A stretch of DNA of 64,000 bases from Schmidtea nova (lineage: Eukaryota). The stretch covers positions 561,968,001 to 562,032,000 of the forward strand of contig CM097882.1 in assembly GCA_044892505.1 (NCBI GenBank), in the 5' to 3' direction. A program made the translations under genes and the position numbers. A model generated the notes under the pieces. That model did not search any database. It was not told the DNA's origin and saw nothing but the letters and a program-made list of their open reading frames with translations. Position 1 is the first letter of the stretch, and each line of letters begins with the position of its first letter. Positions 9,582-45,064 of the stretch are shown one piece after another.

Positions 9582-9587
9582 CTAATG
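9582..9587 (+). repeat. Left 6-bp target-site duplication CTAATG
   Basis: Abuts the AGT terminus; identical hexamer at 22682-22687. Confidence 0.9.
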
Positions 9588-10123
9588 AGTAGGTAGATGT
9601 GTCCGGTCTGGATCCGTATCAGTTATCGCGCGTTTTTTGGCGCCATTTTTAAAGTTTGATTTGTTTAAATGTATGGAATTTTTTATTATTATTTTTATTT
9701 TATTATTAAATTTTTTTTTTTAATTATTTTTTTTTTATTAATTAATTTTTTTTAATTAGTTATTTATATTTATTTTTTTTTAACTTATATTTATTAATAT
9801 TTTTTTTTATTTAGTTCTTTTTTTTTGTTAGTATTATTTATTGTTGTTATTATAATTTTTGAACCACTTCAATGATAAACGTTCAATGAAAACATTCATA
9901 AAAATAATATAAACATATAACAAAATGAGACGATTATACACAACATAAAATTACATAGTCAAATACGATAAATATTAAACTATTATTATTATTAATATTA
10001 CTATTATTTCTATGACATAACCACAGTTTCTAAAAACTATTACCCAAATTAAAAAACAGACTGAAACTAATCTGTACAATATATAACTAAATAAATGAAA
10101 AAACAAAGTTTTTCAACAAAATT

Positions 10124-13100
10124 TTATTTAAATAAAACTGTTTCTTCTTCAGTTTGACCTTGGAATTGTTGATCTGGATTGATTCTGGGTTCGGTATGTT
10201 GAAATATAACCAAGTCACCTCCCATAAAATGGCCATATGCCAAGCTTTTATTTTTCGCAACCCATTTCCTTTTATCATCTGCGTTTGTCAGTGCAGTCTT
10301 TTCATTTTTAATAGTAAAAAGTTGGTGATTTTTACTTGTGATTCTGGTTTGAGGAACAGAAAATATTTGGTTATTATTAAAACAGTCCAGGTACGACTGA
10401 TGCTTTATGTCAGTACCCGCTAATGTTGCCCCTTTAGCTTTATTAGTTTCCTCGTCACCTAAAAGACTATAACATTTAGGTCTAAGAAACACCCACTCCT
10501 CGTATTTAAGCCCTTTATTCTCGTCTTTGAACTTGCCAATGACAGAATCAAGGTTCCTACTATATAATGGGTGATTCGGATCATAATTAGAAGTGTCAAG
10601 TAAGTTATCTCTTATCATGGCCGGTAAAAGAATATCAAGCTTACAATTTCTAATCTCAAGAAAAAACGAATCGGTGTCACCAGCTACGATGTTAATTTCG
10701 CAGTTGAATTCGTTACGATATTTTTGTAACTCTTCATACTGCAGCTGGTACATTCTAAGTTTAGATAGATCCAGTACAGTTTGACCAATGTAGCTGGGTC
10801 TATCCAAACACACCGATTCCTGATTCAGCAAGACGGCAACCAAATCATCGTCAATTTCGAAAGTCCTTTTAAAAGTTGGCTTAGAAGTATATGTAATCAG
10901 CCTAGAAGCCGAATTACATAATCTTAAATTTATGCGCTTTTTAAGATTCTCTACGGTTTTACCGTAGAGACTATTATTTAATAATTTAAAATAATTTTTA
11001 CCCAGAGCATTACTTGATTCTGCTCTAAGTCTGGTATTGGTATCGATATAATCCTTAAAAATGCATGCTTGTTTAAATTTAATTGCCCTATGGACATGAG
11101 TTATTTTTACTCCAAGAGAAAGAAAAAGTTTGAGAAGTCTCCAATGAAGAACATAGTTCTTCTTGGGATAATGCGTAAGCATCAACTTCTCAACCTTTGA
11201 GCCAGGTGGACACATCTTTTCAGCGGCAACTGGCAAATCATCCAGCTTGTCGTGAATCGAATCAGGAATTTCTAAATAGACTTCTAATGTAAATCCAAAT
11301 GTTAATACTTCTAAATCAGCAGATTCACAGTAATAAATAATTTTATTTAATTTTTCCCTATCAGTTACCCATTTAAATTCTTTATAAGGTAGTTTTTGGC
11401 TTAAGGCCCACCCATATAAATTATTTATATCTATATAAAGAAGCTCAGTGTCGTCGGAGGATACTACATGGTGTTTGTTAACAAATGTTAACCCACCACG
11501 GATCCCCCCTTCGAAAAAATTATACATCTCCATATCTTGAAGCAACTCGATAGGAGATTTCAAAGTCATCAAAGCTGAATTCCATGACATGCCTGGAATT
11601 CCCAAGAAATTAAGAGGCTCAAGTCGGTTATGTGCAATGGATTTTGCCCTAAATTGCTGAAAAAAGTCGGCAAGTAAGAAAACATCCAATTTCAGGTATA
11701 ACATCATATAATCAAACAATGTTTCACAATTAAATTCATCCCATATTTGTTGAGCTTTTTCATACTCGTCGATTTTAACTCCTTCCCAAATCGGTGGGAA
11801 CTCGTATGTATTTTGTAAAACCTCTAAAGAAGTTGCAAAATTATATGGGAATATGCCTTTGGATGTAATAATAGTCCCTATAAATTCGGATGAAGTAAGA
11901 GGAAAATCTGTTAAAGTCTTTACAGCATCGTTTAAGCTACAGCTTACAAATTGGCAAGAATCGATAAATTTAATAGTTAAACTATCGACTCTTGCATATA
12001 AAGTCAAAAACTTTTCACTTGTAGTAGGAATACAACTTATATCCCATTTATCGAATTTATTTAAACCATACTTGAGGATATGATGCAAATCATATCCGCG
12101 TAAATTATGAAATATTACTGGCATGATGAATCTTATTTGCCGAGAAAAATTACATTTAGCGCAAGCCGCACCCAAGTATTTACCTGTATAATGGTCATGA
12201 TCTTTAACCGGATTTTTCAAAGGTTTATTACACAAATAACAAATTATAGAACTACGAAATGATCTTATTTGTGCAGGGGAAAGATATTCCATTTTCTTTT
12301 TGGAATTATTTATAAAGTAAGGTAAAACTAGTTTTTCTCCTATATCATTGATTTCGGTCAAAAACTCTTCTACACAGTTAAGACCATAAAAGCTTTTATA
12401 CGATTTTTCGCCAGTAAAGTTATTAATAAGCAACAAGCCAGCAGAAATAGGCAAGTGACGTTGAAAATACTTATCGTCCTTCGGTAAAACAGCCTCAAAA
12501 TCGGCATATACAACAAAAGGAGGGGTAACAATCTTTGACCAATCTTTAAATTCCAAGTTCTTATCCGAAGGCAAAGTATACAAAGTTGTACCTAACTGGT
12601 TTTTTGTGCATAAAGCCTGATGTTTCTCAAAAACTTCAGTCAATCTAAAACCATTCAAGCAACGCTCACACCAAATGCATCTTATCCTAACATTGGTAAC
12701 AGTAAGTGTGTCACAATTCAAAAGTCTATTAATATTAGTAACTCCTATATAATGAAAAGAGTCACTTTCCTCTAACAAAATCAAATTAATTGGAGTGCCA
12801 CCTACAACCTTTGACCTATGAATAATATCTACAAATGGATGTTTCATGACTTCATCCTCCTCATTAATATTATTTAGATCATACTCGTCATATGAAAGGA
12901 TATTTATAGCCAGTCCAGGGTTTTTCGCTTCAAATTTGGGGATATTACATACTTTCATTGGAAAATCAGAAGGATCAAACACAAGGTCTAAGGGATTATA
13001 ATTATAAGACTTACTTCTATTAGATTTCACATCCTTGTATTTTAAAATTGCCAAAATACTATATATAAAACACAAGTTATCTGTATTCTTTACATTGACA

Positions 13101-14501
13101 GTGCAATGTTTTGCATTTAATGATGGTGGAGTTGAACAAGAACCTTTACCGCTCAATCTACTTATTTGGGAATATTTTGTAAGTTTAAAGCTTATTTCTT
13201 TAATTTTATTTATTGACCAATTGCTGCCATTTTCGCAGACTTTAGTCATTTTTTCACTTAATAGAGCAATACCTTCATCTAAAAAGGTATCACTCATTGG
13301 TTTTGCAGAATTTGATATTATAAAAGATTGAAATTGCTTATTCTTTTCAAATTCTACATCAATGCAGAATTGAACTTTTACATACCCCATTTTGGAAATA
13401 ACTGAATTAAATTTATTTAATAAAGGTGAAGGAATAATTAATTTATTTAAATTTAAAGAATCCACATCCATTTTAACAATGGCATGGGATTTTTTCAAAT
13501 TATATTTAACCAAAGATTCAACAGAACCGCCATATTGGACAACATGCAAATTAGGAATAACTAAAACATCGTCATTTGATGAATGGACATCTTCATCATC
13601 AGATATTACATTTATTTTAGCCGGTTTAGGACAAACAATAACATTTCGTCGTTTACTTTTATTAATTAATGCGAAAAGACTTTTCTTAGTGCATGAGAAT
13701 TGATCTAAATGGAGATAATGTTGGAAATAAAAATCAATGTAATTTATATGTTGGGCGCTCTTACATGTGGGACATAAATAGAAGGTGACTTGATTATTTA
13801 TAAGACGATAGTATCGCTCCATTAACTTGTGGCAGTCGTTATGATTTGATGACTTACAATAATTCGGATAAAATTTACCTTAATATGAAATATCTTTAAA
13901 TTTATCAAAATATCATTAAAATAAATTAATAAAAAATATGAATTATTAGAAAATAAATATGAAACTTAAGATAAATATGATTTAAATATAATAATTACTA
14001 AAATAATTTAAATTTAATATAAAAATTATTACAAAATAATATTAAAGGAATTTGTTTAAATTAACTGTTTACGTAAAGTAAAGATTATTTAAATTATTAC
14101 AAAATATTACCAAAAATATATATTTACAAATATTTTACTATATTTATTTACTAAATTAATTAAAATAATTATCAAAATATAATTAAAATTAATCAATACT
14201 TACATTGAACATTCAATACCACATCAGGTATAACTCCATTATTCATAATATTCTCATTATCAACAATCTCAGCTTGTACGGTAGTTTGTTCAGTCATATT
14301 TACATCACCTAAAGTAAAAATTAAATAATATACTAATTTAATGATTAAATACCATTTTCTTCCGCATTTTCTAACATCGATTTCCCAATTGAATTATTGA
14401 TATTACCTAAATTAATACTAAATGATAATAAATTAAAAAATAAATTTACCGTTTTCTTTCCCACTTGGGTTTTCGTTCATAAAACTTGTTATCATGTTCA
14501 T
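10124..14501 (-). CDS. polB: Protein-primed family-B DNA polymerase, left copy; predicted exons 14501-14450, 14406-14353, 14308-14204, 13878-10124 (1321 aa; 1232 aa from the first ATG of the last exon)
   Basis: ExoI YADFEA, ExoII HNLRGYD, ExoIII YLKLD, PolA DINNLYG, PolB KLLNNSLYGK, PolC GDTDS, KCY; mirror image of the right copy. Confidence 0.93.
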
Positions 14502-14550
14502 TTTTAATGTTTATTATTTGTTAAAGTGAATAATGAATGAAAAAGGATTG

Positions 14551-14636
14551 TTTATATATCAAAGTTATTACACACACATAACCTTTGACCAATAAAAATT
14601 GAGTAAGGGGTAGGAAATTTATTCTTATTAGCCAAT
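14551..14636 (-). promoter_or_regulatory. Mirror copy of the polB promoter in the left arm
   Basis: Reverse complement of 17633-17718. Confidence 0.6.
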
Positions 14637-15039
14637 CAGAATCGAGTAAGAGGCAGTAAAGGTATTATTATCATCAAATAGAGAAATGATAGAGAATTAT
14701 GACTAATCATATATTACGTTGCAGTATTTTAAAAAAACTAGAAAAGTTATTTCAACAAATTATAATACACATCAAAGTTATAAAATATTTCAATGAATTG
14801 CATGCATGTCATATGATTAAAATATATTAGACTAAATATTTCAGAAAATTACGTCTAAATTATATTACATTTCAATAATTACGTCAGTTATAAAAAATAT
14901 TTTAATTAATTTTGATAAAATACATTAGAATTGTCAATAACACACACAAAACCTTTATAATTTTCATTAGTATAGAAAATTAAATTATATCTACACATGA
15001 TTACAATAAATATTCGATAAATCTATGCTAAATAGTATT

Positions 15040-15718
15040 ACAAAACACGTGTGCATCACAAACATATCAATATACTTAATTTTGAATCAAGCCATTTTAT
15101 AGATATTTAAATTTTATTTATATGTAATTACAATGAAAACTCACTAAAGTTATTTTAAATAACTAAAACTTACAAAATTAATTACAAAACACGTGTGTAA
15201 CACGAAAAACGACAACATTTACATTTTGAATCAAGCCATTTTATAGGAAATTAAATTTTATATATACTTTATTACAATGAAAAGTCAATAAATTTATTTT
15301 ATATACATGAAAAACGCAAAATTAATTACAAAACACGTGTGTAACACCAAAAACGTCAACTTTTAGATTTTGAATCAAGCCATTTTATAGCAATTTAAAT
15401 TTTATCTATACTTTATTACAATGAAAAGTCAATAAATTTATTTTATATACACGAAAAATGCAAAATTAATTACAAAACACGTGTGTAATACAAACACACT
15501 AACAAAATAATTTTCTAATCAAGCCATTTTATAGGAAATTAAATTTTACTTATACTTTATTACAATGAAAACTCAATAAATTTATTTTATATACACAAAA
15601 AATGCAAAATTAATTACAAAACACGTGTGTATTACAAAATACGACATCTTTCAGATTTCTAATAAAGCCATTTTGTAGACATTTAAATTTTATACATATA
15701 ATATTACAATGAAAACTC
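15040..15718. repeat. 144-bp tandem repeat array, left (about 5 units)
   Basis: CACGTG at 15046, 15190, 15334, 15478, 15622; GCCATTTT at 15091, 15235, 15379, 15523, 15667. Confidence 0.95.
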
Positions 15719-16140
15719 TGCCGCCCCCCATGTGTGAACTCATATATTTTTTTATTAAATTTAAAATAAAATTTCATATTTAAAAAAAAATTAAAACAAA
15801 AAAGTCATATGATTAAAACAAATAGTCCATTTAATTTAAACAAAAATTCACTTAATTTAAACAAAATTCACTTAATTTAAACAAAAAATTCACTCAATTT
15901 AAACAAATATATGAAATTACGTAATTATATATAAAATTACATAATTATCGGGCTTTATTAAGCACACTTGATTATGTAATGGTTACGTAATCATGTGTGC
16001 TACATAAATACCCGAGCGATTACGTAATATACACACATGGGGGTAGTGGTTCAGTGCGCTCATAGCCTCCTACTACAAGACTTTAAACGCCTTTTTCGAG
16101 TCAATAAACCGGCCGATCGATTTTTTAGTGAAACAATAGA
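15719..16140. other. Unique central segment with nested inverted and direct repeats (candidate origin, hairpin end or resolution site)
   Basis: CCCCCATGTGTG (15725-15736) / CACACATGGGGG (16032-16043); 18-bp stem 15962-15979/15983-16000 with 2 mismatches and a 3-nt loop; about 3.7 copies of a 20-22-bp repeat at 15831-15910. Function is inferred. Confidence 0.6.
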
Positions 16141-17230
16141 TAGACAGAATTTTATTGTCTACAAAATGGCTGAATTAAAAATTCAAAATGTTGTGTATAT
16201 TGTTGTGCACACGTGTTTTGTCATTAAATTTGTATATTTCACCTAAATAAAATAACTTTTTTGAGTTTTCATTCAAATATTATATAGATAAAATTTAATT
16301 GTCTACAAAATGGCTTTATTAGAATTCTGAAATTTGTCGTATTTTGTGATGCACACGTGTTTTATTTTGAATTTTCAAATTTTTAACAATATAAAGTAAC
16401 TTTATGTATTTTTCATTGTAATAAAGTATAAGTAAAATTTAATTTCCTATAAAATGGCTTGATAAGAAAATTAGTTTGTTGGTGTGTTTGTAATGCACTC
16501 GTGTTTTGTAATTAATTTTACATTTTTCATGTATATAAAATAACTTTTTTGAGTTTTCCTTGTAATATTATATGTATAAAATTTAAATGTCTACAAAATG
16601 GCTTTATTAGAAATCTGAAAGATGTCGTATTTTGTAATACACACGTGTTTTGTAATTAATTTTGCATTTTTTGTGTATATAAAATAAATTTATTGAGTTT
16701 TCATTGTAATAAAGTATAAGTAAAATTTAATTTCCTATAAAATGGCTTGATTAGAAAATTATTTTGTTAGTGTGTTTGTATTACACACGTGTTTTGTAAT
16801 TAATTTTGCATTTTTCGTGTATATAAAATAAATTTATTGACTTTTCATTGTAATAAAGTATAGATAAAATTTAAATTGCTATAAAATGGCTTGATTCAAA
16901 ATCTAAAAGTTGACGTTTTTGGTGTTACACACGTGTTTTGTAATTAATTTTGCGTTTTTCATGTATATAAAATAAATTTATTGACTTTTCATTGTAATAA
17001 AGTATATATAAAATTTAATTTCCTATAAAATGGCTTGATTCAAAATGTAAATGTTGTCGTTTTTCGTGTTACACACGTGTTTTGTAATTAATTTTGTAAG
17101 TTTTAGTTATTTAAAATAACTTTAGTGAGTTTTCATTGTAATTACATATAAATAAAATTTAAATATCTATAAAATGGCTTGATTCAAAATTAAGTATATT
17201 GATATTTTTGTGATGCACACGTGTTTTGTA
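16140..17230. repeat. 144-bp tandem repeat array, right (about 8 units, inverted relative to left)
   Basis: CACGTG at 16210, 16354, (16498 CTCGTG), 16642, 16786, 16930, 17074, 17218. Confidence 0.95.
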
Positions 17231-17632
17231 ATACTATTTAGCATAGATTTATCGAATATTTATTGTAATCATGTGTAGATATAATTTAATTTTCTATACT
17301 AATGAAAATTATAAAGGTTTTGTGTGTGTTATTGACAATTCTAATGTATTTTATCAAAATTAATTAAAATATTTTTTATAACTGACGTAATTATTGAAAT
17401 GTAATATAATTTAGACGTAATTTTCTGAAATATTTAGTCTAATATATTTTAATCATATGACATGCATGCAATTCATTGAAATATTTTATAACTTTGATGT
17501 GTATTATAATTTGTTGAAATAACTTTTCTAGTTTTTTTAAAATACTGCAACGTAATATATGATTAGTCATAATTCTCTATCATTTCTCTATTTGATGATA
17601 ATAATACCTTTACTGCCTCTTACTCGATTCTG

Positions 17633-17718
17633 ATTGGCTAATAAGAATAAATTTCCTACCCCTTACTCAATTTTTATTGGTCAAAGGTTATGTGTGTGTA
17701 ATAACTTTGATATATAAA
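17633..17718 (+). promoter_or_regulatory. Candidate Pol II promoter of right polB (two reversed CCAAT boxes plus TATA)
   Basis: ATTGG at 17633-17637 and 17676-17680, TATATAAA at 17711-17718, predicted ATG at 17768. Confidence 0.6.
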
Positions 17719-17767
17719 CAATCCTTTTTCATTCATTATTCACTTTAACAAATAATAAACATTAAAA

Positions 17768-20700
17768 ATGAACATGATAACAAGTTTTATGAACGAAAAC
17801 CCAAGTGGGAAAGAAAACGGTAAATTTATTTTTTAATTTATTATCATTTAGTATTAATTTAGGTAATATCAATAATTCAATTGGGAAATCGATGTTAGAA
17901 AATGCGGAAGAAAATGGTATTTAATCATTAAATTAGTATATTATTTAATTTTTACTTTAGGTGATGTAAATATGACTGAACAAACTACCGTACAAGCTGA
18001 GATTGTTGATAATGAGAATATTATGAATAATGGAGTTATACCTGATGTGGTATTGAATGTTCAATGTAAGTATTGATTAATTTTAATTATATTTTGATAA
18101 TTATTTTAATTAATTTAGTAAATAAATATAGTAAAATATTTGTAAATATATATTTTTGGTAATATTTTGTAATAATTTAAATAATCTTTACTTTACGTAA
18201 ACAGTTAATTTAAACAAATTCCTTTAATATTATTTTGTAATAATTTTTATATTAAATTTAAATTATTTTAGTAATTATTATATTTAAATCATATTTATCT
18301 TAAGTTTCATATTTATTTTCTAATAATTCATATTTTTTATTAATTTATTTTAATGATATTTTGATAAATTTAAAGATATTTCATATTAAGGTAAATTTTA
18401 TGCGAATTATTGTAAGTCATCAAATCATAACGACTGCCACAAGTTAATGGAGCGATACTATCGTCTTATAAATAATCAAGTCACCTTCTATTTATGTCCC
18501 ACATGTAAGAGCGCCCAACATATAAATTACATTGATTTTTATTTCCAACATTATCTCCATTTAGATCAATTCTCATGCACTAAGAAAAGTCTTTTCGCAT
18601 TAATTAATAAAAGTAAACGACGAAATGTTATTGTTTGTCCTAAACCGGCTAAAATAAATGTAATATCTGATGATGAAGATGTCCATTCATCAAATGACGA
18701 TGTTTTAGTTATTCCTAATTTGCATGTTGTCCAATATGGCGGTTCTGTTGAATCTTTGGTTAAATATAATTTGAAAAAATCCCATGCCATTGTTAAAATG
18801 GATGTGGATTCTTTAAATTTAAATAAATTAATTATTCCTTCACCTTTATTAAATAAATTTAATTCAGTTATTTCCAAAATGGGGTATGTAAAAGTTCAAT
18901 TCTGCATTGATGTAGAATTTGAAAAGAATAAGCAATTTCAATCTTTTATAATATCAAATTCTGCAAAACCAATGAGTGATACCTTTTTAGATGAAGGTAT
19001 TGCTCTATTAAGTGAAAAAATGACTAAAGTCTGCGAAAATGGCAGCAATTGGTCAATAAATAAAATTAAAGAAATAAGCTTTAAACTTACAAAATATTCC
19101 CAAATAAGTAGATTGAGCGGTAAAGGTTCTTGTTCAACTCCACCATCATTAAATGCAAAACATTGCACTGTCAATGTAAAGAATACAGATAACTTGTGTT
19201 TTATATATAGTATTTTGGCAATTTTAAAATACAAGGATGTGAAATCTAATAGAAGTAAGTCTTATAATTATAATCCCTTAGACCTTGTGTTTGATCCTTC
19301 TGATTTTCCAATGAAAGTATGTAATATCCCCAAATTTGAAGCGAAAAACCCTGGACTGGCTATAAATATCCTTTCATATGACGAGTATGATCTAAATAAT
19401 ATTAATGAGGAGGATGAAGTCATGAAACATCCATTTGTAGATATTATTCATAGGTCAAAGGTTGTAGGTGGCACTCCAATTAATTTGATTTTGTTAGAGG
19501 AAAGTGACTCTTTTCATTATATAGGAGTTACTAATATTAATAGACTTTTGAATTGTGACACACTTACTGTTACCAATGTTAGGATAAGATGCATTTGGTG
19601 CGAGCGTTGCTTGAATGGTTTTAGATTGACTGAAGTTTTTGAGAAACATCAGGCTTTATGCACAAAAAACCAGTTAGGTACAACTTTGTATACTTTGCCT
19701 TCGGATAAGAACTTGGAATTTAAAGATTGGTCAAAGATTGTTACCCCTCCTTTTGTTGTATATGCCGATTTTGAGGCTGTTTTACCGAAGGACGATAAGT
19801 ATTTTCAACGTCACTTGCCTATTTCTGCTGGCTTGTTGCTTATTAATAACTTTACTGGCGAAAAATCGTATAAAAGCTTTTATGGTCTTAACTGTGTAGA
19901 AGAGTTTTTGACCGAAATCAATGATATAGGAGAAAAACTAGTTTTACCTTACTTTATAAATAATTCCAAAAAGAAAATGGAATATCTTTCCCCTGCACAA
20001 ATAAGATCATTTCGTAGTTCTATAATTTGTTATTTGTGTAATAAACCTTTGAAAAATCCGGTTAAAGATCATGACCATTATACAGGTAAATACTTGGGTG
20101 CGGCTTGCGCTAAATGTAATTTTTCTCGGCAAATAAGATTCATCATGCCAGTAATATTTCATAATTTACGCGGATATGATTTGCATCATATCCTCAAGTA
20201 TGGTTTAAATAAATTCGATAAATGGGATATAAGTTGTATTCCTACTACAAGTGAAAAGTTTTTGACTTTATATGCAAGAGTCGATAGTTTAACTATTAAA
20301 TTTATCGATTCTTGCCAATTTGTAAGCTGTAGCTTAAACGATGCTGTAAAGACTTTAACAGATTTTCCTCTTACTTCATCCGAATTTATAGGGACTATTA
20401 TTACATCCAAAGGCATATTCCCATATAATTTTGCAACTTCTTTAGAGGTTTTACAAAATACATACGAGTTCCCACCGATTTGGGAAGGAGTTAAAATCGA
20501 CGAGTATGAAAAAGCTCAACAAATATGGGATGAATTTAATTGTGAAACATTGTTTGATTATATGATGTTATACCTGAAATTGGATGTTTTCTTACTTGCC
20601 GACTTTTTTCAGCAATTTAGGGCAAAATCCATTGCACATAACCGACTTGAGCCTCTTAATTTCTTGGGAATTCCAGGCATGTCATGGAATTCAGCTTTGA

Positions 20701-22145
20701 TGACTTTGAAATCTCCTATCGAGTTGCTTCAAGATATGGAGATGTATAATTTTTTCGAAGGGGGGATCCGTGGTGGGTTAACATTTGTTAACAAACACCA
20801 TGTAGTATCCTCCGACGACACTGAGCTTCTTTATATAGATATAAATAATTTATATGGGTGGGCCTTAAGCCAAAAACTACCTTATAAAGAATTTAAATGG
20901 GTAACTGATAGGGAAAAATTAAATAAAATTATTTATTACTGTGAATCTGCTGATTTAGAAGTATTAACATTTGGATTTACATTAGAAGTCTATTTAGAAA
21001 TTCCTGATTCGATTCACGACAAGCTGGATGATTTGCCAGTTGCCGCTGAAAAGATGTGTCCACCTGGCTCAAAGGTTGAGAAGTTGATGCTTACGCATTA
21101 TCCCAAGAAGAACTATGTTCTTCATTGGAGACTTCTCAAACTTTTTCTTTCTCTTGGAGTAAAAATAACTCATGTCCATAGGGCAATTAAATTTAAACAA
21201 GCATGCATTTTTAAGGATTATATCGATACCAATACCAGACTTAGAGCAGAATCAAGTAATGCTCTGGGTAAAAATTATTTTAAATTATTAAATAATAGTC
21301 TCTACGGTAAAACCGTAGAGAATCTTAAAAAGCGCATAAATTTAAGATTATGTAATTCGGCTTCTAGGCTGATTACATATACTTCTAAGCCAACTTTTAA
21401 AAGGACTTTCGAAATTGACGATGATTTGGTTGCCGTCTTGCTGAATCAGGAATCGGTGTGTTTGGATAGACCCAGCTACATTGGTCAAACTGTACTGGAT
21501 CTATCTAAACTTAGAATGTACCAGCTGCAGTATGAAGAGTTACAAAAATATCGTAACGAATTCAACTGCGAAATTAACATCGTAGCTGGTGACACCGATT
21601 CGTTTTTTCTTGAGATTAGAAATTGTAAGCTTGATATTCTTTTACCGGCCATGATAAGAGATAACTTACTTGACACTTCTAATTATGATCCGAATCACCC
21701 ATTATATAGTAGGAACCTTGATTCTGTCATTGGCAAGTTCAAAGACGAGAATAAAGGGCTTAAATACGAGGAGTGGGTGTTTCTTAGACCTAAATGTTAT
21801 AGTCTTTTAGGTGACGAGGAAACTAATAAAGCTAAAGGGGCAACATTAGCGGGTACTGACATAAAGCATCAGTCGTACCTGGACTGTTTTAATAATAACC
21901 AAATATTTTCTGTTCCTCAAATCAGAATCACAAGTAAAAATCACCAACTTTTTACTATTAAAAATGAAAAGACTGCACTGACAAACGCAGATGATAAAAG
22001 GAAATGGGTTGCGAAAAATAAAAGCTTGGCATATGGCCATTTTATGGGAGGTGACTTGGTTATATTTCAACATACCGAACCCAGAATCAATCCAGATCAA
22101 CAATTCCAAGGTCAAACTGAAGAAGAAACAGTTTTATTTAAATAA
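17768..22145 (+). CDS. polB: Protein-primed family-B DNA polymerase, right copy; predicted exons 17768-17819, 17863-17916, 17961-18065, 18391-22145 (1321 aa)
   Basis: Same motifs in an uninterrupted 1232-aa ORF; three phase-1 GT-AG introns (43, 44, 325 nt) join upstream exons in frame (52+54+105+3755 = 3966 nt); AATAAA at 22141-22146 overlaps the stop. Polymerase identity is more certain than the 5' exon model. Confidence 0.93.
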
Positions 22146-22681
22146 AATTTTGTTGAAAAACTTTGTTTTTTCATTTATTTAGTTATATATTGTACAGATT
22201 GGTTTCAGTCTGTTTTTTAATTTGGGTAATAGTTTTTAGAAACTGTGGTTATGTCATAGAAATAATAGTAATATTAATAATAATAATAGTTTAATATTTA
22301 TCGTATTTGACTATGTAATTTTATGTTGTGTATAATCGTCTCATTTTGTTATATGTTTATATTATTTTTATGAATGTTTTCATTGAACGTTTATCATTGA
22401 AGTGGTTCAAAAATTATAATAACAACAATAAATAATACTAACAAAAAAAAAGAACTAAATAAAAAAAAATATTAATAAATATAAGTTAAAAAAAAATAAA
22501 TATAAATAACTAATTAAAAAAAATTAATTAATAAAAAAAAAATAATTAAAAAAAAAAATTTAATAATAAAATAAAAATAATAATAAAAAATTCCATACAT
22601 TTAAACAAATCAAACTTTAAAAATGGCGCCAAAAAACGCGCGATAACTGATACGGATCCAGACCGGACACATCTACCTACT

Positions 22682-22687
22682 CTAATG
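22682..22687 (+). repeat. Right 6-bp target-site duplication CTAATG
   Basis: Abuts the ACT terminus; identical to 9582-9587. Confidence 0.9.
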
Positions 22688-30707: not shown

Positions 30708-32302
30708 TATTTACATTAATAAGTAACAAATAAAAATAAATAAATAAAAATAAATAAATGCGTACGCAAAACTGAAATTTGTAAAATGATTTTTAAATGC
30801 TGCAAACTAAATTAGATATGTTAAATAATTAATAACAAATTTAAAGCAAATGATTTAATATTCAATTAATGCTGCTACCAAGAAATCAACATTTTATACT
30901 AAATTAGATAAGAAAATAATTTCGAAAGTGATTTGGAAATTATTTTCTATTTTGATATAGAATTATGGTTGTTTTTTATTGATAAATATGGTTTAATTAA
31001 AGTATTTATAATTGCTTTAATATTTTTTGATAATTTTGAGATTAAAATTTAAATAAATATTTCAAATGTTAATTACAACAGCAATTTTTATTGGTGATTG
31101 AATTCGTTAAGAATGCTTATAATGAAATAATTATTTACCAGATTCAAATGATAAGGGGAATTTAATAAAGTTTAACGGAATGTTGTTTAAGACCTTTATA
31201 AAGCAGAATAAAGAGAGATATTTGAAAAGAAGATAATAATAATAGAAAATAAATAAATTTAAAAATGAATAAAAAGAATGTCATCATTAATTAACAATTG
31301 GAAATTGGAAAAAAATATATCAAAAATATCTCCACAACTCCAATACTTATCAAAAGGGTTGATAAATATCAGAACTGTGCAGGCATAACAAAAGTTGAAT
31401 TTGACCACCAAAATTATTGGAAAAAGAAAAAAAGCAATTGCATACTCTACAACATAATGGAGGCATATTGGTAAATTATTGAGAGGTTTGAGAATGCAGT
31501 GAAAATGGAAATTATTATTGAGTATAGGAATTTTAAAGTAATTTAGTAAAATCCAAATTGATAGATATTTAACTTTGTGTGAATTTTTGTAAATTAAAAA
31601 GAAATTGTGAAGTCAAGGTAAAGAAAGCAACGACACCAATTTAATCAAGATATTAAACGTGAGACGGTAACCAAGTGCTTGTAAATCTGAGTTCTATCCA
31701 AATGAGCTATTCTTTACAGAACATTGTGATAAAATTTGCAAACTGTTGAGGTATCTAATCAATTTTTGTAGTTGTGATCAGTAAATCCAAGTTTGGATCG
31801 TAACTGGTCTGATAAATAAACGTTTAAATTATTCAAAATTAGTTACTGTTATTAAACAAAGTACGATTGGAGTCCAGATCAACAGTTATTAATTATTAAT
31901 TCCACTGACAATAAGTAGTTTAATTTAAAAATAGTGAAAAATGATAACAGTACTTCTTTTCTATCTCTGATCAATTTATATAATAACCGAGCTAACCGTA
32001 CAAAGGTGGGATTTTATTTTTGTTTATAATAAGTAAGTAACAAATTACTAAATTATATTAAATGTTTAAAAATAATATTAACAAAAAAGCAGTTCAAAGT
32101 TCCATAATTAAATTATAAATTGATTAAACTGTTGAATATCTTAAACATGTGCCATCGAATATAAAGTGATCAGAGGAAAATATTGTTTTGAGATTTTTAA
32201 GACTATTTCAAACAAAATATGTAATAATAATAATAATAATTAGTATTATTTATTATAATTATTATTATTAAAAATAATTAATTTAACTTAAATAATATTT
32301 AA

Positions 32303-33148
32303 TTAATTTAATAATAAATATACCGTTTCAATTTTAATTTCTTTATTAGGAAATTTTTGTTTGATCCAACTTTTGTCATTGAAATTCTCAGTTTGTGAAT
32401 TGCATAATTTATTTACTTGATTAGATTTTTGGAAAGAATATTTTTCTGTCCCCTGAGTTGGTTCATAGAGACTTTTACACCGTTCACCATCTTTCATTCG
32501 AGATCTCGAAACTCGACTATTAATATTAGAGGTGTCTTTTAATGATTTCATTGATTTGTTTTCATTTATCAAAGCAAGGGTCGGTTTTGATGACCTTGAA
32601 GTCGAACGATTGCGAAAGAAAAATTTTATTTTTTCAGATAACGAAACATGAGGAGATTTCACATTATTAGTTTGATCTGTGTTGACTTCTTTAACTTCGA
32701 TTCTTTCCACGTTTCTAGATTTAAATGGCACTGAAGCTGACCGACAGATTTTCATAACGTCTTTTACAGGAGACCATTCAGAAGAAACCGGTGGCAAATA
32801 TGGTTTGCAATCTTTATTTGAACTGTTAATACTTTTCAAAGTGCACTCGTCATATTTATTGCAGGTTTTAGATTCATAATCTCTAAATGATTGACAATGA
32901 TTGTTGTTTTGAAAATTGTCGTTTTCATTATTATTATTATTTGTGCTACTGTCAGCAGTTTGAAAGGAATTTATTTCAAAAGGAAACTGAAATTTAACAA
33001 ACACATCTGTGCTAGTGAGAGAAGACCGTTTAGAAATTCTTTGATTTCCAGGCGAAATGTAAACTAAAGATGGTGGCATTTCATTTGGGAGATTGAAATC
33101 TTTTTTACTGAAATCTTCCGAAAGTGGTCTTCTTTTCCACAGTTTCAT
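32303..33148 (-). CDS. Ser/Asn/Lys-rich ORF, probably the large first exon of an unidentified host gene
   Basis: 281-codon ORF in AT-rich DNA; likely donor GTATAT after ...EIKIET; downstream exons not resolved. Confidence 0.55.
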   Translation of the reverse strand: MKLWKRRPLSEDFSKKDFNLPNEMPPSLVYISPGNQRISKRSSLTSTDVFVKFQFPFEINSFQTADSSTNNNNNENDNFQNNNHCQSFRDYESKTCNKYDECTLKSINSSNKDCKPYLPPVSSEWSPVKDVMKICRSASVPFKSRNVERIEVKEVNTDQTNNVKSPHVSLSEKIKFFFRNRSTSRSSKPTLALINENKSMKSLKDTSNINSRVSRSRMKDGERCKSLYEPTQGTEKYSFQKSNQVNKLCNSQTENFNDKSWIKQKFPNKEIKIETVYLLLN

Positions 33149-36132: not shown

Positions 36133-39100
36133 CTTGTCATATTTACAGATTTTGATCTGTCTGTGACAGCTTTAATGATTTTATTTTTTGCAAATGAATC
36201 GGAAACCTGAATCAGAAAAAAATTTTTATTGATAAAAATTTGATAACTCTAACCTCAATCGCTCTGTGGAGAATATTATCGGAGATATTGACAAATCTTG
36301 CTGCCTGAATAGCATGACTGCATTCAATATGACCATCAACCAATTGGTATAAATATATTAATTGACTGTTTTTGTCTTCAATAATATTGAAATTCTATCA
36401 ACCATATCATTTGTACTTCACAATATTTATCTCACTTTAAACTGAACCTTCGGCAGATCTTGGATAAGAGAAAATAATCTATGAAAATGAGTAACTAGAA
36501 ATATATGGGGACAATCAGATTTCTTTGCTACCATAAACCGAAGAAAAGCTACAATCAAAGAAATTCCTGACTTCTAAGAAATTAAAAAGAATCAAAAAAA
36601 ATACAAAAAATGCGTGAAAAATCACAAAAACTGAAATAGAATTGTCATTACCATCTCTTATTCTCACCATTAATCTTTTCGTTTCTATTTCAGAAATTTT
36701 CATTATTTTTATAAAAACGATATATCAATAGTTTTTTATTATAAAGTTACACGAATTTTGGGCACAGCTTTTTTTGAGTACACCCATGAAATAGGCTGGG
36801 CCGATAATTCATGTAACTTTATAAAAAAAATATTGACCTATTGTCGTTTTAAAAATAATAAAATGCTATTGTTATAAATTTATAAAACGTATATGGTTTT
36901 AAAATTTGTAAATTTCTAACTCCTTTACTGCCTTGCGTACAAATATCTTCATTCTTCGAAGGAGTGATTGCTAGCATATTTATAGTCAGTTGCTTGGTAT
37001 GACTTTAATTGAATGAATCGCTGTTGTTATATTCTGCCATGTTCATATAAATGATAAACCCCCTAAAGTATACTGATGAATAACAACTAATTTCTTGCAT
37101 AATCACTTCGTGCACTATCAGAGACTCGGTCAATTTGCTGTGGGAAATCTTGACTCTTCACGTTGTAACATTAACAACAACAATAATACCTTTCCATGAT
37201 TTCAAAATCTCCTTTAATTTATTTATCAAATTCTTTTTCAAATTCTTTATTTTATTCCAGCAAACGTGATTTCTGTAATTTTGCTCCCGTTTTTAAGGTT
37301 CAATAATCTTATGATTGCTGGCTCATTTTGCTTCTACCGATTTTCTAGGCATGGAAAGATAGCTAGTTAACATCAAGGATTCACTTATTTAGCTTCCAAG
37401 CGCCCATTAACCATGTTATTATAACTACCCTAGAAAATCCATTTTATTTGCTCACTAGTTTGCTTACATACTTATCTTTTAATCTGATTTACATAACTAA
37501 CTAATTAAAAATTATCTATTTTAACATATTTTAACAATTCGTTTTCATCTCGTTATTCGTCATCATTAACTCTATTCCTAACATATTTTACAAATTTTTA
37601 ATCCAATAAATAATTGATTATCTTTTGGTTTCACCTTTAATCTCTTTTTTTAACTCAATAATTTTCATATTAATTTTTGTAGGACTAAATTAAATTTGTT
37701 TTTGTAAAGACACGATATTTTGGCAAGGCCTTTAGCAACATTTTTATACACACTTGATAAAGGCTATGTCGAAATATGGTGTCCTGAAAATAGGTTTTGA
37801 TCTATAGTCTTACAAAAGTAAATATGAAAATTATTGAAGCTGAAAATATAGACTATTAATAAGATGTCCTGTTAAATAATTAACAGTATTTAGCTGTAAA
37901 AACAACTGATTTGCAAAAATTTTAGTCAGAGTGCAATAATCCGAAATAAACCTACGTTTCTATGAATATTGATTTTTTGCAGCCCACCTAAAGTTAAACC
38001 TTGTTTGTTTGGCCCAAGTTCGCCTATGAGTTTGACACCCTTGAGTTAAAGGGTTTCTTCACAACTTAAAAATGTTTTTTTTAAATATTTTTCTAATTCT
38101 TAAATCAATTTTTGAATTTTAAGCACAAAAACTTAATCGTTTTTTAAAATTTTAGCTCATAAAACCAATTTATTTTTTAGAAAGATGCTTTTGCTCTATT
38201 ACGCTTCGTTTTCGAATCTATAACTTGACTAATTTTTTGTTTTATAACTCCGTCTGATCTTACTTTTCATTTTATACTTTTCACCGCGTCTTGCAAGAGT
38301 AACGGAATTTTAAATTACAGTGTTATAATAATTGAGAACATAAATTCAGTATATATCTCGAGGAGATGTATAACAATATGATTTTAAAGACTCCCTTCAA
38401 TGAGTGAGCTGAAGTTTATCCGGATGAGATTTAGAAAATATCTATTCATATATGTTATACTATTATTGTAAGGAAAGGTTATATTATTAAACCCTTTCAA
38501 TACGACTTTTGATCAGCGAATTTGTTTATATGTAAATGATAAAGATTTGTATCTACGTCTCTATAATTCATAAGAATTCATAAATCCCATTCAAATGCAT
38601 AATAAATGTAACATTAAAAATCAGAAGTTTTTAAACATATCTCGGGATGTATGGCAGCACCGAAAAGGTCAAATTAAATTCATCCATTATATGAAAAGAC
38701 AAAATGTCCGTAATATGGGCGAGAATAACAACTTTAAATTGTATTAATTAATAAATAAGTAACAAAATAGGCCTTTGCTGCAAAAATAATTTTCTCACTT
38801 AATAAAATTATTTTTGCAGCAAAGGCTTATTTTGTTACTTATTTATTAATTAATTTAATACTTAATGCTGCTACCAAGGAATCACCATTTTAAACTTTAA
38901 ATTGTGTATTTATATAATAAAATTATAATAAAATATAACGTTCCATCTTATTATATTTTATAGAAGAAATTGTTTTGGGAAAAAAGTTTACGTTTTCTAC
39001 AATTACAAGTTATTTTGATTTTCTTAAAATTCTGTTTAAGATAGAATATTGAGACAATATGGAAATCGTTAAAATTTTCAACCTTCTTCACCTTTGACTT

Positions 39101-42100
39101 TTGATCTTTTTGTATCATTTTTCAAACAATAGATCAAAAACTTGGGTTAATTAGGTGAAAAAAACAATTTTTGATCTATTGTTTGAAAAAATTGAAAATT
39201 AACAACAAGGAAAATATAATCAATATAAATAGTAATAGTACAAAATTAATATTTTAAGATAAAGCTAAAACTAATATTTTATTACTTTTATTAACACGTT
39301 GCTCACAGGAGACGCTAATTCCAGTTATATGTACTTTAGGCTGTATCGTGAAAAAAACAAAAACTACTATTAACTGACGCGTATTAGTGTCTCCAGTCAC
39401 CAACAGTTGGAAAATGAAAGACGCCAATCCGCGTTTCCAGTGAGTAATTTGTAAAAATAACTTACCATTTCAGCTCCTTTTCCAAATTCATCAATCAAAA
39501 TTGTTGAATGTGCGTTGGACTTTTTACAGCAAAGTGATATTTGATTAAGATCTACCATGAAAGTTGATAATCCAGATAAACTTGATTCTATAGACTTAAG
39601 CCTTGTCAAAAGGGCGTTTTGAGGAGTTAATATCATCTTAGTAGCCGGAACAAAACTTCCAATCTGAGCTAATACAATTAAAATTCCTATCTATAATGCA
39701 ATAATAACTCCATGAATGCCACCATAATTCTACATGCCTGTTTAAGATAAACACTTTTCCCAGATCCATTGGCACCGGATATAATAGTTAGTTTACCATC
39801 CCAATCATTGGAGTATGTTGAATTAGGTATAAATGGATCGGAATAGACTTCTTGCAGTGGATGCCTAGAGAATATTGATGCACTGTTTTTTTCTACTAGA
39901 TTTGTTACCTTCCATTTTCAATTTTAATTTCACCATTTGTATCGAATGAAGGCCGTGAGCCCTCTATCTGTCTGGCCGCTATGGCTAAAGACAGCAAACT
40001 AATAAATTGTGAATATGAACATAAAACAAATAAATATACCAGTCTAATTCTAATACTAAGTCAAAACAATTCAAAAGCATATGAGTATATTCAAGAATAC
40101 TTTCTTGTAAACAATGCATTATTGAAGTTTCCAGATCTAAAATCATATTTGTACCAAGTTAATATTATAAATTATTTGACTATTTAAAAATCAGAAATAG
40201 TTAATATAGATCAATAAAGATCAATAAATTTGTGCCTAGATTTAATTAATTGAATCATTGTCATCGGATCAGAAATATATCTGCTATCTTCGATCAATGG
40301 TAGACAAAAAATAGAATTAACCGTTGGACTACCAATTTTATATTTAAATATTTAATGTTTTTTAGTATGTGTTTTGTACATGTTATGTATGCTTATCACA
40401 GTTTATTCATGTATGGTTTTATATCAAATGAAAAAAAGGATCAAATTTGGGGGCATGGGCGTACGTGCCCCGTGGAGTTTACTGGTTGCAATCATATGTC
40501 CCAATGGGGTTCTAGCCAAAAGATTAATCAAATCATTTGTGCGTAAAAGGTTTATCCTGAAAAAAACAACCATTAGTGTATATAATATTTTATTTTGGAA
40601 AAGCGTATATAAACAGTTTACATAATGAAAATTAATCTTGATTTTACCAAAGAAATTGGTGATAAATAGCTGCTTCCTCCAAAAATCATAAAATTCCTTC
40701 AATCTAGGTAGAGTTTTGAGAACAAACATCGCGCGGTTTATCACAAACCATTTGGGATGCATATTGTGAGTTTTATAATCGCTATTTTACCATTGGGGTT
40801 GTATTAGCCATGTGCCGTTTATTCTTACTGATATTTCATTGGATTATATTGAAAATAATTTGGAAAGGTATTTTTTACCGAAATAAGTATTAAACCTAGA
40901 AAACATGGAGGTGACCAGTGGTTCAACTTAGTTTTAGATAATAATCTCTTCCCTATTGAAATGTGATAATGTTTGTTATTTGATTCTAAATTACTAATTG
41001 GATAAGTACTTGATTGTTCAAAAATAATTTTGTGTTGATCTTATCACTGTACACAATTAGAATATCAATGAAATAATAGTAAATGAAATAATAATAAAAC
41101 AAGTAATAATCTGAATTATTATATAAAATTAAATTTTTAAATAAATAAAATTCCGTTAAAAAATCATTAGCCACGCCTATTAAAATACGACAGAACTTTC
41201 CTTCCAACCTAAAATCTTAAATTAATTAATAAATTTGTATAATTTTTTAAATCTAGTTTTATTAAAGCTAGATTATCCTCGTTTTTATTTGTTTTTATAA
41301 TGTTCCGAATATCATTTACTCGAGTACTTTTTATGCTATAATATTTGGTGGGACAAGTTTCTCGGAAATGTTTTAACACATTCCAAACTATGATGATTTA
41401 ATGAATTTGTTTCAAATAAGTATCTGCTAACATCGAACAAGATGGAATTTATTTAAAAGATAAAAGTTCAGAATTCCAATACCGTTTCATGTATCAATAT
41501 TACGAAAGATACTGATAAAGATTAGACTACCGTCTTAACCCGAAAATAACACCAAGGTGTTATGTTTGAATATAAGACTACTCTGGTGTTTTATTCACAT
41601 ATAACACCATGGTGTTTTAAAATACTTTAATGTAATAACTTTTTTTTTATATATTGATATGCATATTCTCCATCCACCTTTAAAAGCTTTATTTCAACCA
41701 TCTTTTGACATTACTATCTGGAATGAATTATATGCATCTGAGTATGTTACACCTGAAAACGATGATATAAATGAAGAAAAATATCAACCACCAGAATGGT
41801 ACTTACCAGATTCAAATACTGCAAACTTTTATATGTGTGTACACCACAAGAAATATGGTAATCAATAGTGCATCCAATACCGGTATCATTTTTCAATATC
41901 GGAATTTCGGTATTGAAAAATTTCAACACCGGTAATAGCGGAAAATACCGGTATTGAAACTTTAAAAAAATAATTAAAATATGATTAAAATATGATTAAA
42001 ATCTCATATAAATAGTAAAAATTTACAGTGATTCAATAAATTTTTTTATTTTATATCAAAATACAGACTTTTTTAATTTTGTGCTTTTTTCTCCTTTGTA

Positions 42101-44987
42101 AAATATGCTCGTAAGAAACAAAGGGCATCCAGAGTATCATCCTCAAGAGATGATCGTAATTTGGTGACAAAGTTGCCACTTGCCGAAAATCCACGCTCAG
42201 ATTAAACACTTGTTGGTTTTATAGTTTTCAAGTATTCGTAGGAGTTTTGCAAGTATGTTCCACGAGTTCCTTCTTCGAAAACTGCAAGATTGTTTTTGAT
42301 GAATCTTTTGAAACGTTTAATCTCCCCTTATTTTTGCACTTATTATCATTCAAAATTGCCTTTTCTTTCAATGACAAGTTTACAGTGCTGTCAACAGAAT
42401 CGCTATCGGATGAAACGCTGGTGGAAGGGATAGGCTCGTCTGTTTGCTGATTGAGCCGCTCATTCAGTCGAACCATGGCGTTTACAATGGCTGATTTGCT
42501 AAGGTGCTCAAATGACAGCGCTGGATATAAATTCTCGTATCGTTGATGGCCGTTGTGCAGATAGTGCAGTAAGCTAGAAAAATTTGTCCGTCGCTCAATT
42601 ATTCGTCGCACAAACGCAGCTTTCAATTTAACAGCTAATTCCGTGTCTCCAAGGTTATTTACCATAAACAAAAGTGTTGTATCGGCTGACAACAATGTTG
42701 CATCATTTCAGCACAATGCTTCCACGGCTAGTTTCACTGGCGCGAGACATGAAATTGCCACAACAGATGAAATTGTGTCAAACTCCTTATCAGTTATCTT
42801 AATTTTAGAGTCAAGGTCAATCAGTGACTTCCGAATGCAATTTTTCAATTTCATGAGACGTTCGAGCATTGTGTGCAAGCTACTCCAACGAGTTTTGGAG
42901 TAGAGCATTAGTGAAAATGCTTTACCAAATTCGTCTACTGTGTACTTTTCGTGCGTTTTTGCATTTTTGTACGCACATTAGCGATTACCGGCTGCAAATC
43001 ATAAGTCAGTTTAATAATTTCGTCCTTCTCATTCATCACAACTTGAAACCCGTCAGAAAAATCTTCTTCGTCATCATTGGATATGTTTGCGTCATCGTCA
43101 GTGGTCGTATCATCGTCACTTTCACTGCTATTCTCGTCATTGAAGATTCCTTTCAAGATTGTTTTGCATGAAGTTGACGGTTTTTTGTACAAAACGTCTT
43201 GCACACCCAGTTGAATACCATGCACAAAGCATAACTGTTGATCACAATTGCTTAAATATCCCACTTTCTGCATTACGGAAGCTCCATCAGTAGTAATGCA
43301 CACAATGTCTTCATCGTAATTCAGCATAAACTGCGTCAACACTTTTTGAACTAACTCAATGCATTTTTAGCAGTCAGTGAACCAACAACTCTAGCTAATC
43401 CAAGGCTCCAAAATTAATAAATCCGGAATTAATAAATTTAGTCAGTAAAAATTGTAATTGGTCATGAATTTTGCAATTTTTAGTATGGCATAAACAGTCT
43501 CACAAAACCAATAATAGCCCTGCATTCGTCAATTTAGTTATGAAAAGTCTAATTTATTTTCAGTTAAAAAAGCAATACCTTATTAATATTATATTTTTTA
43601 ATTAAAATTGGGAAATAATTTCAAATATTTTTTATATATCCAATACCGAAATACCGGTATTGAGCCAACCCAATACCGGTATTATATCGGCAGGAAAATG
43701 TACGGTAATACCGGAATTCCGGTATCGGTAATACCGGTATTGGATGCACTAGTAATCAAGCTGAAAATACTTGGAAGGAGTATAAAAATCAATTAATTTT
43801 ATTTATGCAGTCTCTGCATGAATTATCTGATTTAGTAGATTCTAATTATTTTGAAAACATTCAGAATGATGACATACCTGCATCTGAAAACGAGATTTTT
43901 GTTGTGTCCATTAAAGAAAATTGGAACATTATAATAAAAAATGCAAATACTAAAACTTCATTTGAATATCTGGTATCAAATCCAATTAAAACTGTGGTAA
44001 TGGTAGAAATTGATCAGTATTTTGGGATACATATGCTTGGTTAATTAGCATTATATTAATGTTTAAATATTAAATAAAAAACCATGGTGTTATATTTAAA
44101 GTGGTGTTATATTTGAATTTTTCTTCAATGTTTTAAAAAGTCAAAATTTTTTAAAAACTCAAATACAACACCATGGTGTTATTTTCGGGTTAAGACGGTA
44201 GTAACAAAATATCTCATTCTTACACTGAATGGCATTTAGAAAGCCGTTTAAATGCAATTATATTCGAGAAATTTGCACTTTACTGCGATAACAAGAATTA
44301 TTTAGAACTATATAAAAAATTAAATATCATCCGATTACTATTATTTACCTTTTATTTCGTAAAGAATGTCTCCGAATTCTTTGTCTAATTCNNNNNNNNN
44401 NNNNNNNNNNNNNNNNNNNNNNNNNNNNNNNNNNNNNNNNNNNNNNNNNNNNNNNNNNNNNNNNNNNNNNNNNNNNNNNNNNNNNNNNNNNNNNNNNNNN
44501 NNNNNNNNNNNNNNNNNNNTGACTTACTTGTTTTTAACAAGAAAAGCTTGTGATTTTTTGTGATACCCAGTGCAAATCCCCAATAGCAGACTAGTTTCGA
44601 GCTTTTGGTTCTCATCAGTGCTACGCAGGAGACGCAAAGATTTCTCTCCGCGCCAGTTAAGTATAAAACAAAGTCGAAAGATTTTTGTTATATTCTATAC
44701 CTGGTCGGGTTTGAACACTTTTACTGCGCAGAGGCGAAAATGAAATTCATGCGCCATGTTTGCAAGTAACAGATTATCTGTAGGACCTTGCATATTCAAG
44801 TGATATTTTATCCAGTGAACCAGGTATAGTATATAACAAAAATCTTTCGACTTTGTTTTATACTTACCTGGCGCGGAGAGAAATTTTCGCGTCTCCTGCA
44901 TAGCACTGATGAGAGCCAAAAGCTCGAAACTAGTCTGCTATTGGGGATTTGCACTGGGTATCACAAAAAATCACAAGCTTTTCTTGT

Positions 44988-45064
<77 letters not shown>

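Follow-up and report, generated by a model that had tools for sequence, protein, structure and literature searches.

The protein-primed polymerase of Polintons (pPolB) primes on a terminal protein (TP) at each end of the DNA and displaces one strand, and it has long been modelled that these elements replicate by way of a folded single strand. In the available part of 10.64898/2026.07.28.741278 the terminal repeats are modelled as annealed on the excised molecule. Vertebrate Mavericks, as described in the accessible text of PMC8097293, have (AGT)2 or (AG)3 ends, duplications of the target site (TSDs) that are 6 bp long and terminal repeats of 46–1,447 bp, and intact copies are intronless. For Polintons the available portion of 10.1101/2023.08.22.554363 gives repeats of 100–1,500 bp and a length of 13–25 kb.

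The window, by which we mean the whole stretch of 64,000 nucleotides analysed here, contains a mirrored element of 13,094 bp (9588–22681) with a unique segment at its centre. The left arm (9588–15718, − strand), which starts 5′ with AGTAGG, and the right arm (16551–22681, + strand), which ends 3′ with CCTACT, are mirror images; over 6,131 positions they differ by six substitutions (three transitions, three transversions) and no indels, i.e. by about 0.1%. A copy of CTAATG stands at either end (9582–9587 and 22682–22687, + strand), and of 11 end positions tried solely the pair 9588/22681 yields a 6-bp flanking match. The mirror symmetry stops at the element boundary, plus one TSD base by chance, and both flanks are unique. 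The size falls inside the Polinton range of 13–25 kb and the TSD inside that of 5–8 bp (usually 6 bp); the TSD agrees with the 6-bp TSDs reported in the accessible text of PMC8097293, and the termini AGTAG..CTACT come close to the end motifs given there, AGTAGG being identical to (AGT)2 at five of six positions. The 6,131-bp repeats lie beyond the Polinton/Maverick range of about 0.05–1.5 kb. A second copy of the element was not detected by BLAST in the 64-kb window. The event may be recent, since the arms are so little apart; either the insertion is young or the arms have been kept homogeneous since, and from the TSD we infer an integrase supplied in trans. The outermost 65–70 bp (9588–9655 and 22614–22681) are GC-richer, contain the motif GCCATTTT of the array units described below, and are probably the original short terminal repeat.

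Each arm harbors one intact, outward-facing TP/vOTU/pPolB gene of 1232 codons. The left one (10124–13822, − strand; ORF list) is directed toward the left end; the right one (18447–22145, + strand) encodes a TP with LF/PAD-like fold, a vOTU, an exonuclease with an endonuclease VII-like insert, and a palm. A sequence search of the PDB gave nothing useful. The predicted model of the protein (mean pLDDT 87) has phi29 polymerase as top match among solved structures (E 3.5e-20) and matches polymerases of the bidnavirus/adintovirus type among predicted viral structures; the catalytic motifs are conserved in an alignment of 60 sequences. The model of residues 95–375 aligns with the PolIV little finger (4IR1) over 92 residues at rmsd 2.6 and Z 8.0, a level rated middling by the structure-comparison tool, and with OTU proteases over 107 residues at rmsd 4.2 and Z up to 7.1. 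Foldseek with the N-terminal model returned zero matches at E 0.001 or better. TP and vOTU of Polintons were identified by the same PolIV little finger/OTU comparison, according to the available text of PMC11161782; judged by the predicted model, the N-terminal region of pPolB bears the TP plus vOTU signature. Pfam recognized in the ORF Endonuclease_7 alone, at an E value of 1.3e-4 that is below the Pfam cut-off. This endonuclease VII-like domain comprises residues 528–558, with conserved C/H/D/N residues, and the motif is present in 103 of the 121 proteins examined, including those of two ordinary multi-gene Polintons, L005 and L008. Splice prediction placed three 5′ polB exons at 17768–17819, 17863–17916 and 17961–18065 (+ strand; mirror 14204–14501). 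The introns are GT-AG, 43, 44 and 325 nt long, all in phase 1, and the exons keep the reading frame of the ORF that opens at 18391; through the three predicted spliceosomal introns the 5′ region (17768–18390, mirror 13879–14501) would add about 89 N-terminal codons.

ORFs of at least 100 codons inside the element are just polB and its shadow frames; the ORF list holds, besides polB, no ORF of the size of Rep/NS1 (HUH initiator) within the element, and Polinton integrase, ATPase and capsid genes were not found there among the ORFs and by tblastn. Fifteen helper-type proteins from three related loci (among them integrases, ATPases and a capsid-like protein, the set holding no identified protease) had no match in the element, and the lone tblastn match of the three related integrases is a Gypsy remnant at 53134, outside it. 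The element is not a complete Polinton and reads as a polymerase-only, copy-back (mirror-duplicated) Polinton derivative.

The rest of the window holds features of other kinds. The Gypsy remnant is part of a fragmented Gypsy-type LTR retrotransposon (50573–53391, + strand) with gag, RT, RNase H and integrase pieces. A MutS domain V exon (39400–39690, − strand) belongs to a host mismatch-repair gene. ORF pieces at 42228–43366 (− strand) look by eye like a hAT-type transposase and have no Pfam match, and for a 281-codon ORF (32303–33148, − strand) homologues and a Pfam family were not found. An intronless ORF of 303 codons (45194–46105, − strand) has one homologue (57%) and no Pfam or atlas assignment; five GCGCACAC-type motifs lie upstream of it (46230–46400) and two foldback elements flank it, one with 173-nt arms (97%) at 44533–44991, which abuts an (AT)35 run, and one with 132-nt arms (87%) at 46527–46958. 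A 56-nt MITE-like hairpin with partial copies elsewhere is found at 38738–38859, 30849–30900 and 53880–53964.

Close homologues are 55–64% identical. The recurring sizes of homologue contigs (about 5.70, 6.05, 6.67, 7.17–7.29 and 12.6 kb), considered as possible collapsed palindromes, are uninformative because an ordinary 12.7-kb element such as L002, broken at an internal array, gives similar ones. Phage and plasmid collections gave no tblastn match. A collection of prokaryotic genomes contained 20 loci, mostly 28–38% identical, which apparently are misbinned eukaryotic elements; Polinton-like contigs in bacterial genome bins are L002, L005, L008, L003 and L006. Mirrored polB was found in none of the 19 loci analysed (L020, 25% identical and partial, being left out), and enough upstream DNA is available only in L002, L005 and L008. 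In L002 (1–12666) polB alone points toward one end, and an A32 ATPase, an rve-chromo integrase and a double-jelly-roll-like protein are encoded on the opposite strand beyond a divergent gap of 1,565 bp; this is likely the parental layout of the mirrored element. L002 also encodes a TBP-like protein (1972–2421). L005 and L008 have divergent gaps with repeated motifs, and their integrase and ATPase genes lie downstream of polB.

At the centre of the element, the preliminary description had seen about 420 bp of non-duplicated DNA. Unique DNA is there, but its extent from mirror and BLAST comparison is 400 bp (15719–16118), and the gap between the perfect arms amounts to 832 bp: the 400 bp plus three 144-bp units (16119–16550, + strand) for which BLAST and array comparison gave no mirror partner. 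These units begin an array of 7.7 units on the right (16119–17232, + strand), in which AAAATGGC occurs eight times and CACGTG seven times; the left array (15037–15718, − strand) has 4.7 units, which mirror right units 4–8, and its inner edge corresponds to 16551, exactly 3 × 144 bp from the start of the right array. The segment had also been described as lying off the global axis, for which arm comparison confirms position 16134.5. The offset is real and follows from the right array being three units longer, so that no special mechanism is needed. Without the three extra units the unique segment would be central, and its midpoint, 15918.5, is the fork of the Y fold described below. Within the right array, units 2–3 resemble units 4–5 (86% and 92%) and unit 6 resembles unit 7 (94%), similarities that suggest unequal exchange. 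A 75-bp linker (16044–16118, + strand) is present only on the right, where its left counterpart measures 6 bp (15719–15724); it has no fold above chance and no Rfam or tRNA match. At 16039–16105 the motifs TAGTGGTTCAGTG and TTCGAGTC, which we take to be A-box-like and B-box-like, are separated by about 50 nt that include a T run. A tRNA- or VA-RNA-like reading of this stretch was rejected (no ARAGORN or Rfam match, fold at chance), and a bacterial promoter scan, irrelevant here, stayed at chance level.

The individual motifs of the centre had been correctly described, and their statistics could be added from dinucleotide shuffles of 15719–16118 and from host windows. The outer GC-rich inverted repeat (15725–15736/16032–16043) is a perfect 12 bp; a 12-bp inverted repeat with at least seven G+C arose in 0 of 1000 shuffles (48 of 1000 for any composition) and in 3 of 241 host 400-bp windows. 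The direct repeats at 15831–15910 consist of a 14-nt core, TTAATTTAAACAAA, at 15831, 15852 and 15872 and, with one change, at 15894, i.e. four copies spaced 20–22 nt apart (15831–15907, + strand); a 13-mer occurring three times was obtained in 1 of 1000 shuffles, and TRF counts 5.5 copies of 22 nt from 15789 on. Of the 18 pairs in the stem of the core hairpin (15962–16000, 3-nt loop), 16 are Watson-Crick, one is T·G and one T·T, a match reached by short-loop hairpins in 0 of 300 shuffles but in 10 of 241 host windows. Its extension is also real: TCGGG pairs with 16011–16015, a TTTAT/ATAAA stem lies between, and the resulting imperfect hairpin of 28 pairs (15948–16015, centre 15981) is, at −20.8 kcal/mol, stabler than all 2160 host 69-nt windows tested. 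The five TTAYGTAA-type octamers (15917, 15937, 15972, 15983 and 16020; 15917–16027) were matched in 0 of 1000 shuffles, with a host maximum of three per 400 bp. Within the 64-kb window the segment is not a host repeat: its strong BLAST matches are solely to itself, the rest being short and AT-rich.

The direct repeats had been called iteron-like. The 14-mer TTAATTTAAACAAA has six copies in the element and none in about 50 kb of host flank; TTACGTAA (18193) and TTAATTTAAACAAA (18205) stand side by side, 12 bp apart, in predicted polB intron 3 (18193–18218, + strand; mirror 14051–14076, − strand), and the 15 occurrences of CACAC(A/G)TG are all inside the element. The joint reappearance of the two main motifs in a predicted intron suggests protein-binding sites and fits transcription-factor sites at least as well as iterons. 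The octamer is presumably a PAR/C-EBP or GMEB site, TAAACA a forkhead site, GCCATTTT a YY1 site and CACGTG an E-box; TTACGTAA, we assume, would also fit GMEB/PIF, a parvovirus origin factor.

What the preliminary description overlooked are two 10-bp stems that turn the fold into a three-way junction. In the predicted single-strand Y (319 nt, 15725–16043) the 12-bp inverted repeat is the closing stem, branch A (15740–15749/15905–15914, 10 bp) encloses the direct repeats, and branch B (15916–15925/16019–16028, 10 bp) carries the long hairpin, with linkers of only 3, 1 and 3 nt; the mean pair probability of the stems is 0.74–0.98. By a test defined after the fold had been seen, none of 5000 dinucleotide shuffles rebuilt a Y-type junction; for shuffles that left 12-, 20- or 30-nt blocks intact the counts were 0, 2 and 7 of 5000, and 0, 0 and 2 of 150 block shuffles attained its energy. 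Folding of the whole segment gives z values of −5.6 and −4.4 for the two strands. In a single-strand fold of 15560–16710, pairing of the arms extends to 15718/16551 and the Y begins 6 nt later; 507 nt of the 832-nt loop fall outside the Y. The idea that the segment is a fold-back point is supported in so far as it would form the tip; position 15981 is not the axis, pairing about it dropping to chance beyond 31 nt with the arms beginning 263 and 570 nt away. A flip/flop inversion of the whole centre would be uninformative since the arms are interchangeable. The three testable relatives L002, L005 and L008, ordinary elements only 31% identical, have no strong gap fold (best z −1.0 to −1.9 versus −6.7 here), so that the Y cannot just be a standard feature that Polintons pass on. 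So precise a three-way junction, as computed, suggests a role in single-stranded DNA.

With moderate confidence we favour the view that the centre is the folded tip of a snap-back replication intermediate and also a shared enhancer, nicking not being needed. The Polinton-type ends, the 6-bp TSD and the TP-bearing pPolB lead one to expect the origins at the ends, and the proposal of a central replication origin is therefore not upheld; replication would start on TP at both ends of the element. The displaced strand, self-complementary over 6,131 bp, would snap back into a clothespin, which by geometry leaves only the 832-nt centre unpaired; 319 nt of it would, according to the computed fold, form the tight Y, which starts 6 nt beyond the long stem, and so compact the exposed loop. 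The open end could then be primed again, and the polymerase reading round the tip would restore the 13-kb duplex without nick or resolvase. In the duplex the two divergent polB promoters have the centre and both arrays upstream of them, and these sequences may serve both genes as a shared enhancer that derives from the divergent control region of an ordinary Polinton. The element would make its own polymerase and need the integrase of a helper Polinton to insert. The view is drawn from one copy of the element, and a nick-free loop would not obviously need a Y of such precision.

A template switch beside the Y is the probable origin of the mirror. The mirror junction is 6 nt from the closing stem and on an array-unit boundary, and one of the six arm differences lies at a distance of 9 nt (post hoc P about 0.009); the switch would have occurred at the left edge of the Y, its landing point being the first position of array unit 4. 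More tentatively, and rather against our expectation, the element could represent an established family of polymerase-only derivatives: 6.5-kb clothespin replicons with a TP end and an evolved Y telomere, of which the 13-kb mirror dimer, having the size of a wild type, borrows the integrase and perhaps the capsids of a helper, much as satellite or defective-interfering genomes do. On that reading the endonuclease VII-like domain embedded in the polymerase may have the Y as its natural substrate. The folded-tip view predicts a molecule that is easy to detect, a protein-capped snap-back of 6.5 kb, and the recent insertion of an integrase-less, polymerase-only derivative implies that the host should also contain an active helper. 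Should the Y be conserved in sister copies, it would connect, within a eukaryotic nucleus, protein-primed replicons with hairpin-ended ones in a natural way, and the nuclease inserts of Polinton polymerases, which are little understood, would have a candidate substrate.

We regard it as unlikely that the Y acts as a hairpin telomere or a second origin, at which the endonuclease VII-like domain or a host enzyme makes a nick or cut, and equally so that such a cut splits the 13-kb dimer into units of 6.5 kb or initiates internal replication. T4 endonuclease VII cleaves branched DNA, the junction is tight, tandem arrays flank it, and pPolB has the conserved residues at 528–558; the nuclease motif, however, is shared with 103 of 121 proteins, among them those of L005 and L008 with no strong gap fold, the arms do not reach into the hairpin, resolution is superfluous given protein-primed ends, and there is no enzyme of the parvoviral nicking type, polB and its shadow frames being the only long ORFs. 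The folded tip with shared enhancer is more likely than a nicked telomere or origin. Little credence is also given to a double-stranded enhancer alone, taken over from the parent Polinton, with the palindrome as a one-off accident and the fold as a by-product of palindromic sites or of earlier local template switches. Centre, polB intron and arrays do have motifs in common, the gaps of L005 and L008 contain repeated motifs too, none of the three testable relatives is mirrored, and an event that left the arms 0.1% apart may be recent. Against it stand the block shuffles, which so rarely rebuild the Y or reach its energy, and the clean 6-bp TSD at both mirrored ends, from which it follows that the palindrome existed free, with two usable ends, before insertion.

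Quite improbable is a misassembly, in which the assembly would have walked the polB arm a second time in place of the other half of an ordinary Polinton. An assembly graph could fork at terminal repeats and arrays, and the scaffold carries three N gaps elsewhere; but the element is free of N, six substitutions and no indels separate the arms, and the mirror stops at the element end between unique flanks, unlike in a fold-back read chimera. A long-read fold-back chimera is ruled out by the mirror stopping at the TSD. We would be most surprised if the 68-nt hairpin turned out to be a microRNA-like precursor or other small RNA: it has the size of a pre-miRNA and RNA fold z values of −7.5 and −8.0, but its Rfam matches are sub-threshold only (E 0.6–2.7, far under gathering scores), and the outer stem, branch A and the position would be left unexplained.

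Compared with Polintons/Mavericks of the adintovirus type (HNH/endonuclease VII insert), the element has in common the TP-vOTU-exonuclease-palm pPolB, the AG..CT ends, the 6-bp TSD, the 13-kb size and a polB reading outward from a divergent control region, as in L002. It differs in that its 6,131-bp repeats contain polB, which is thereby doubled, in that integrase, ATPase and capsid genes were not found, and in its three predicted introns and structured unique centre. It would be the folded-strand intermediate of Polintons taken to the limit: pairing takes up nearly all of the strand, and what is left as a loop is precisely folded. Parvovirus Y/T telomeres and poxvirus concatemer junctions are imperfect, branched, AT-rich folds with factor motifs and nearby tandem repeats. 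Of the parvoviral resemblance that had been noticed, the Y-shaped fold is borne out by computation and Rep/NS1 is not encoded; the poxviral type of hairpin end does not apply, as the hairpin is not on the axis of the head-to-head dimer. In contrast to those viral ends, the fold of the element is internal in the duplex and off the arm axis, and the element ends are of the protein-primed type. As for a junction nuclease of the poxvirus type, a candidate is the endonuclease VII-like domain with its Pfam score below the cut-off, a domain that ordinary relatives have too.

For virophages and PLVs in Halocafeteria hairpins have been proposed to matter in Polinton-like replication; those palindromes, as far as the available part of 10.64898/2026.07.28.741278 goes, are short, terminal and mostly in elements without pPolB, whereas the hairpin here is central. 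Elements with two different replicases, and the suggestion that replicases may move independently, are found in the accessible text of 10.64898/2026.10.13.758929; they are related to the present case, not the same. A palindromic two-polymerase Polinton did not turn up in the literature searched, in the parts of it that were available; supplementary tables, Repbase and subscription journals could hold one. Loosely similar is the enterococcal pELF1, which in the available text of PMC6863802 has one hairpin end and one protein-bound end but a 4-nt loop, 143 kb and a bacterial host. The pFOXC clothespin retroplasmids (PMC3035579, accessible portion) also combine a hairpin end with a protein-bound end and use a reverse transcriptase. 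Homology is not implied in either case.

In its overall architecture the element is a head-to-head inverted dimer of one protein-primed arm, as are replicons of the pGKL1 F1/F2 kind. Kikuchi et al. reportedly described in 1985 the deletion plasmids of yeast pGKL1, F2 being a hairpin and F1 an inverted dimer of F2. In these a protein-primed linear DNA is cut down to one arm and occurs in two forms, a hairpin capped by protein and an inverted dimer, which makes them the closest functional analogue of the element. F1 and F2 are said to be cytoplasmic, laboratory-derived and not integrated, with a near-perfect hairpin, whereas the loop of the element comprises 832 nt and is structured.
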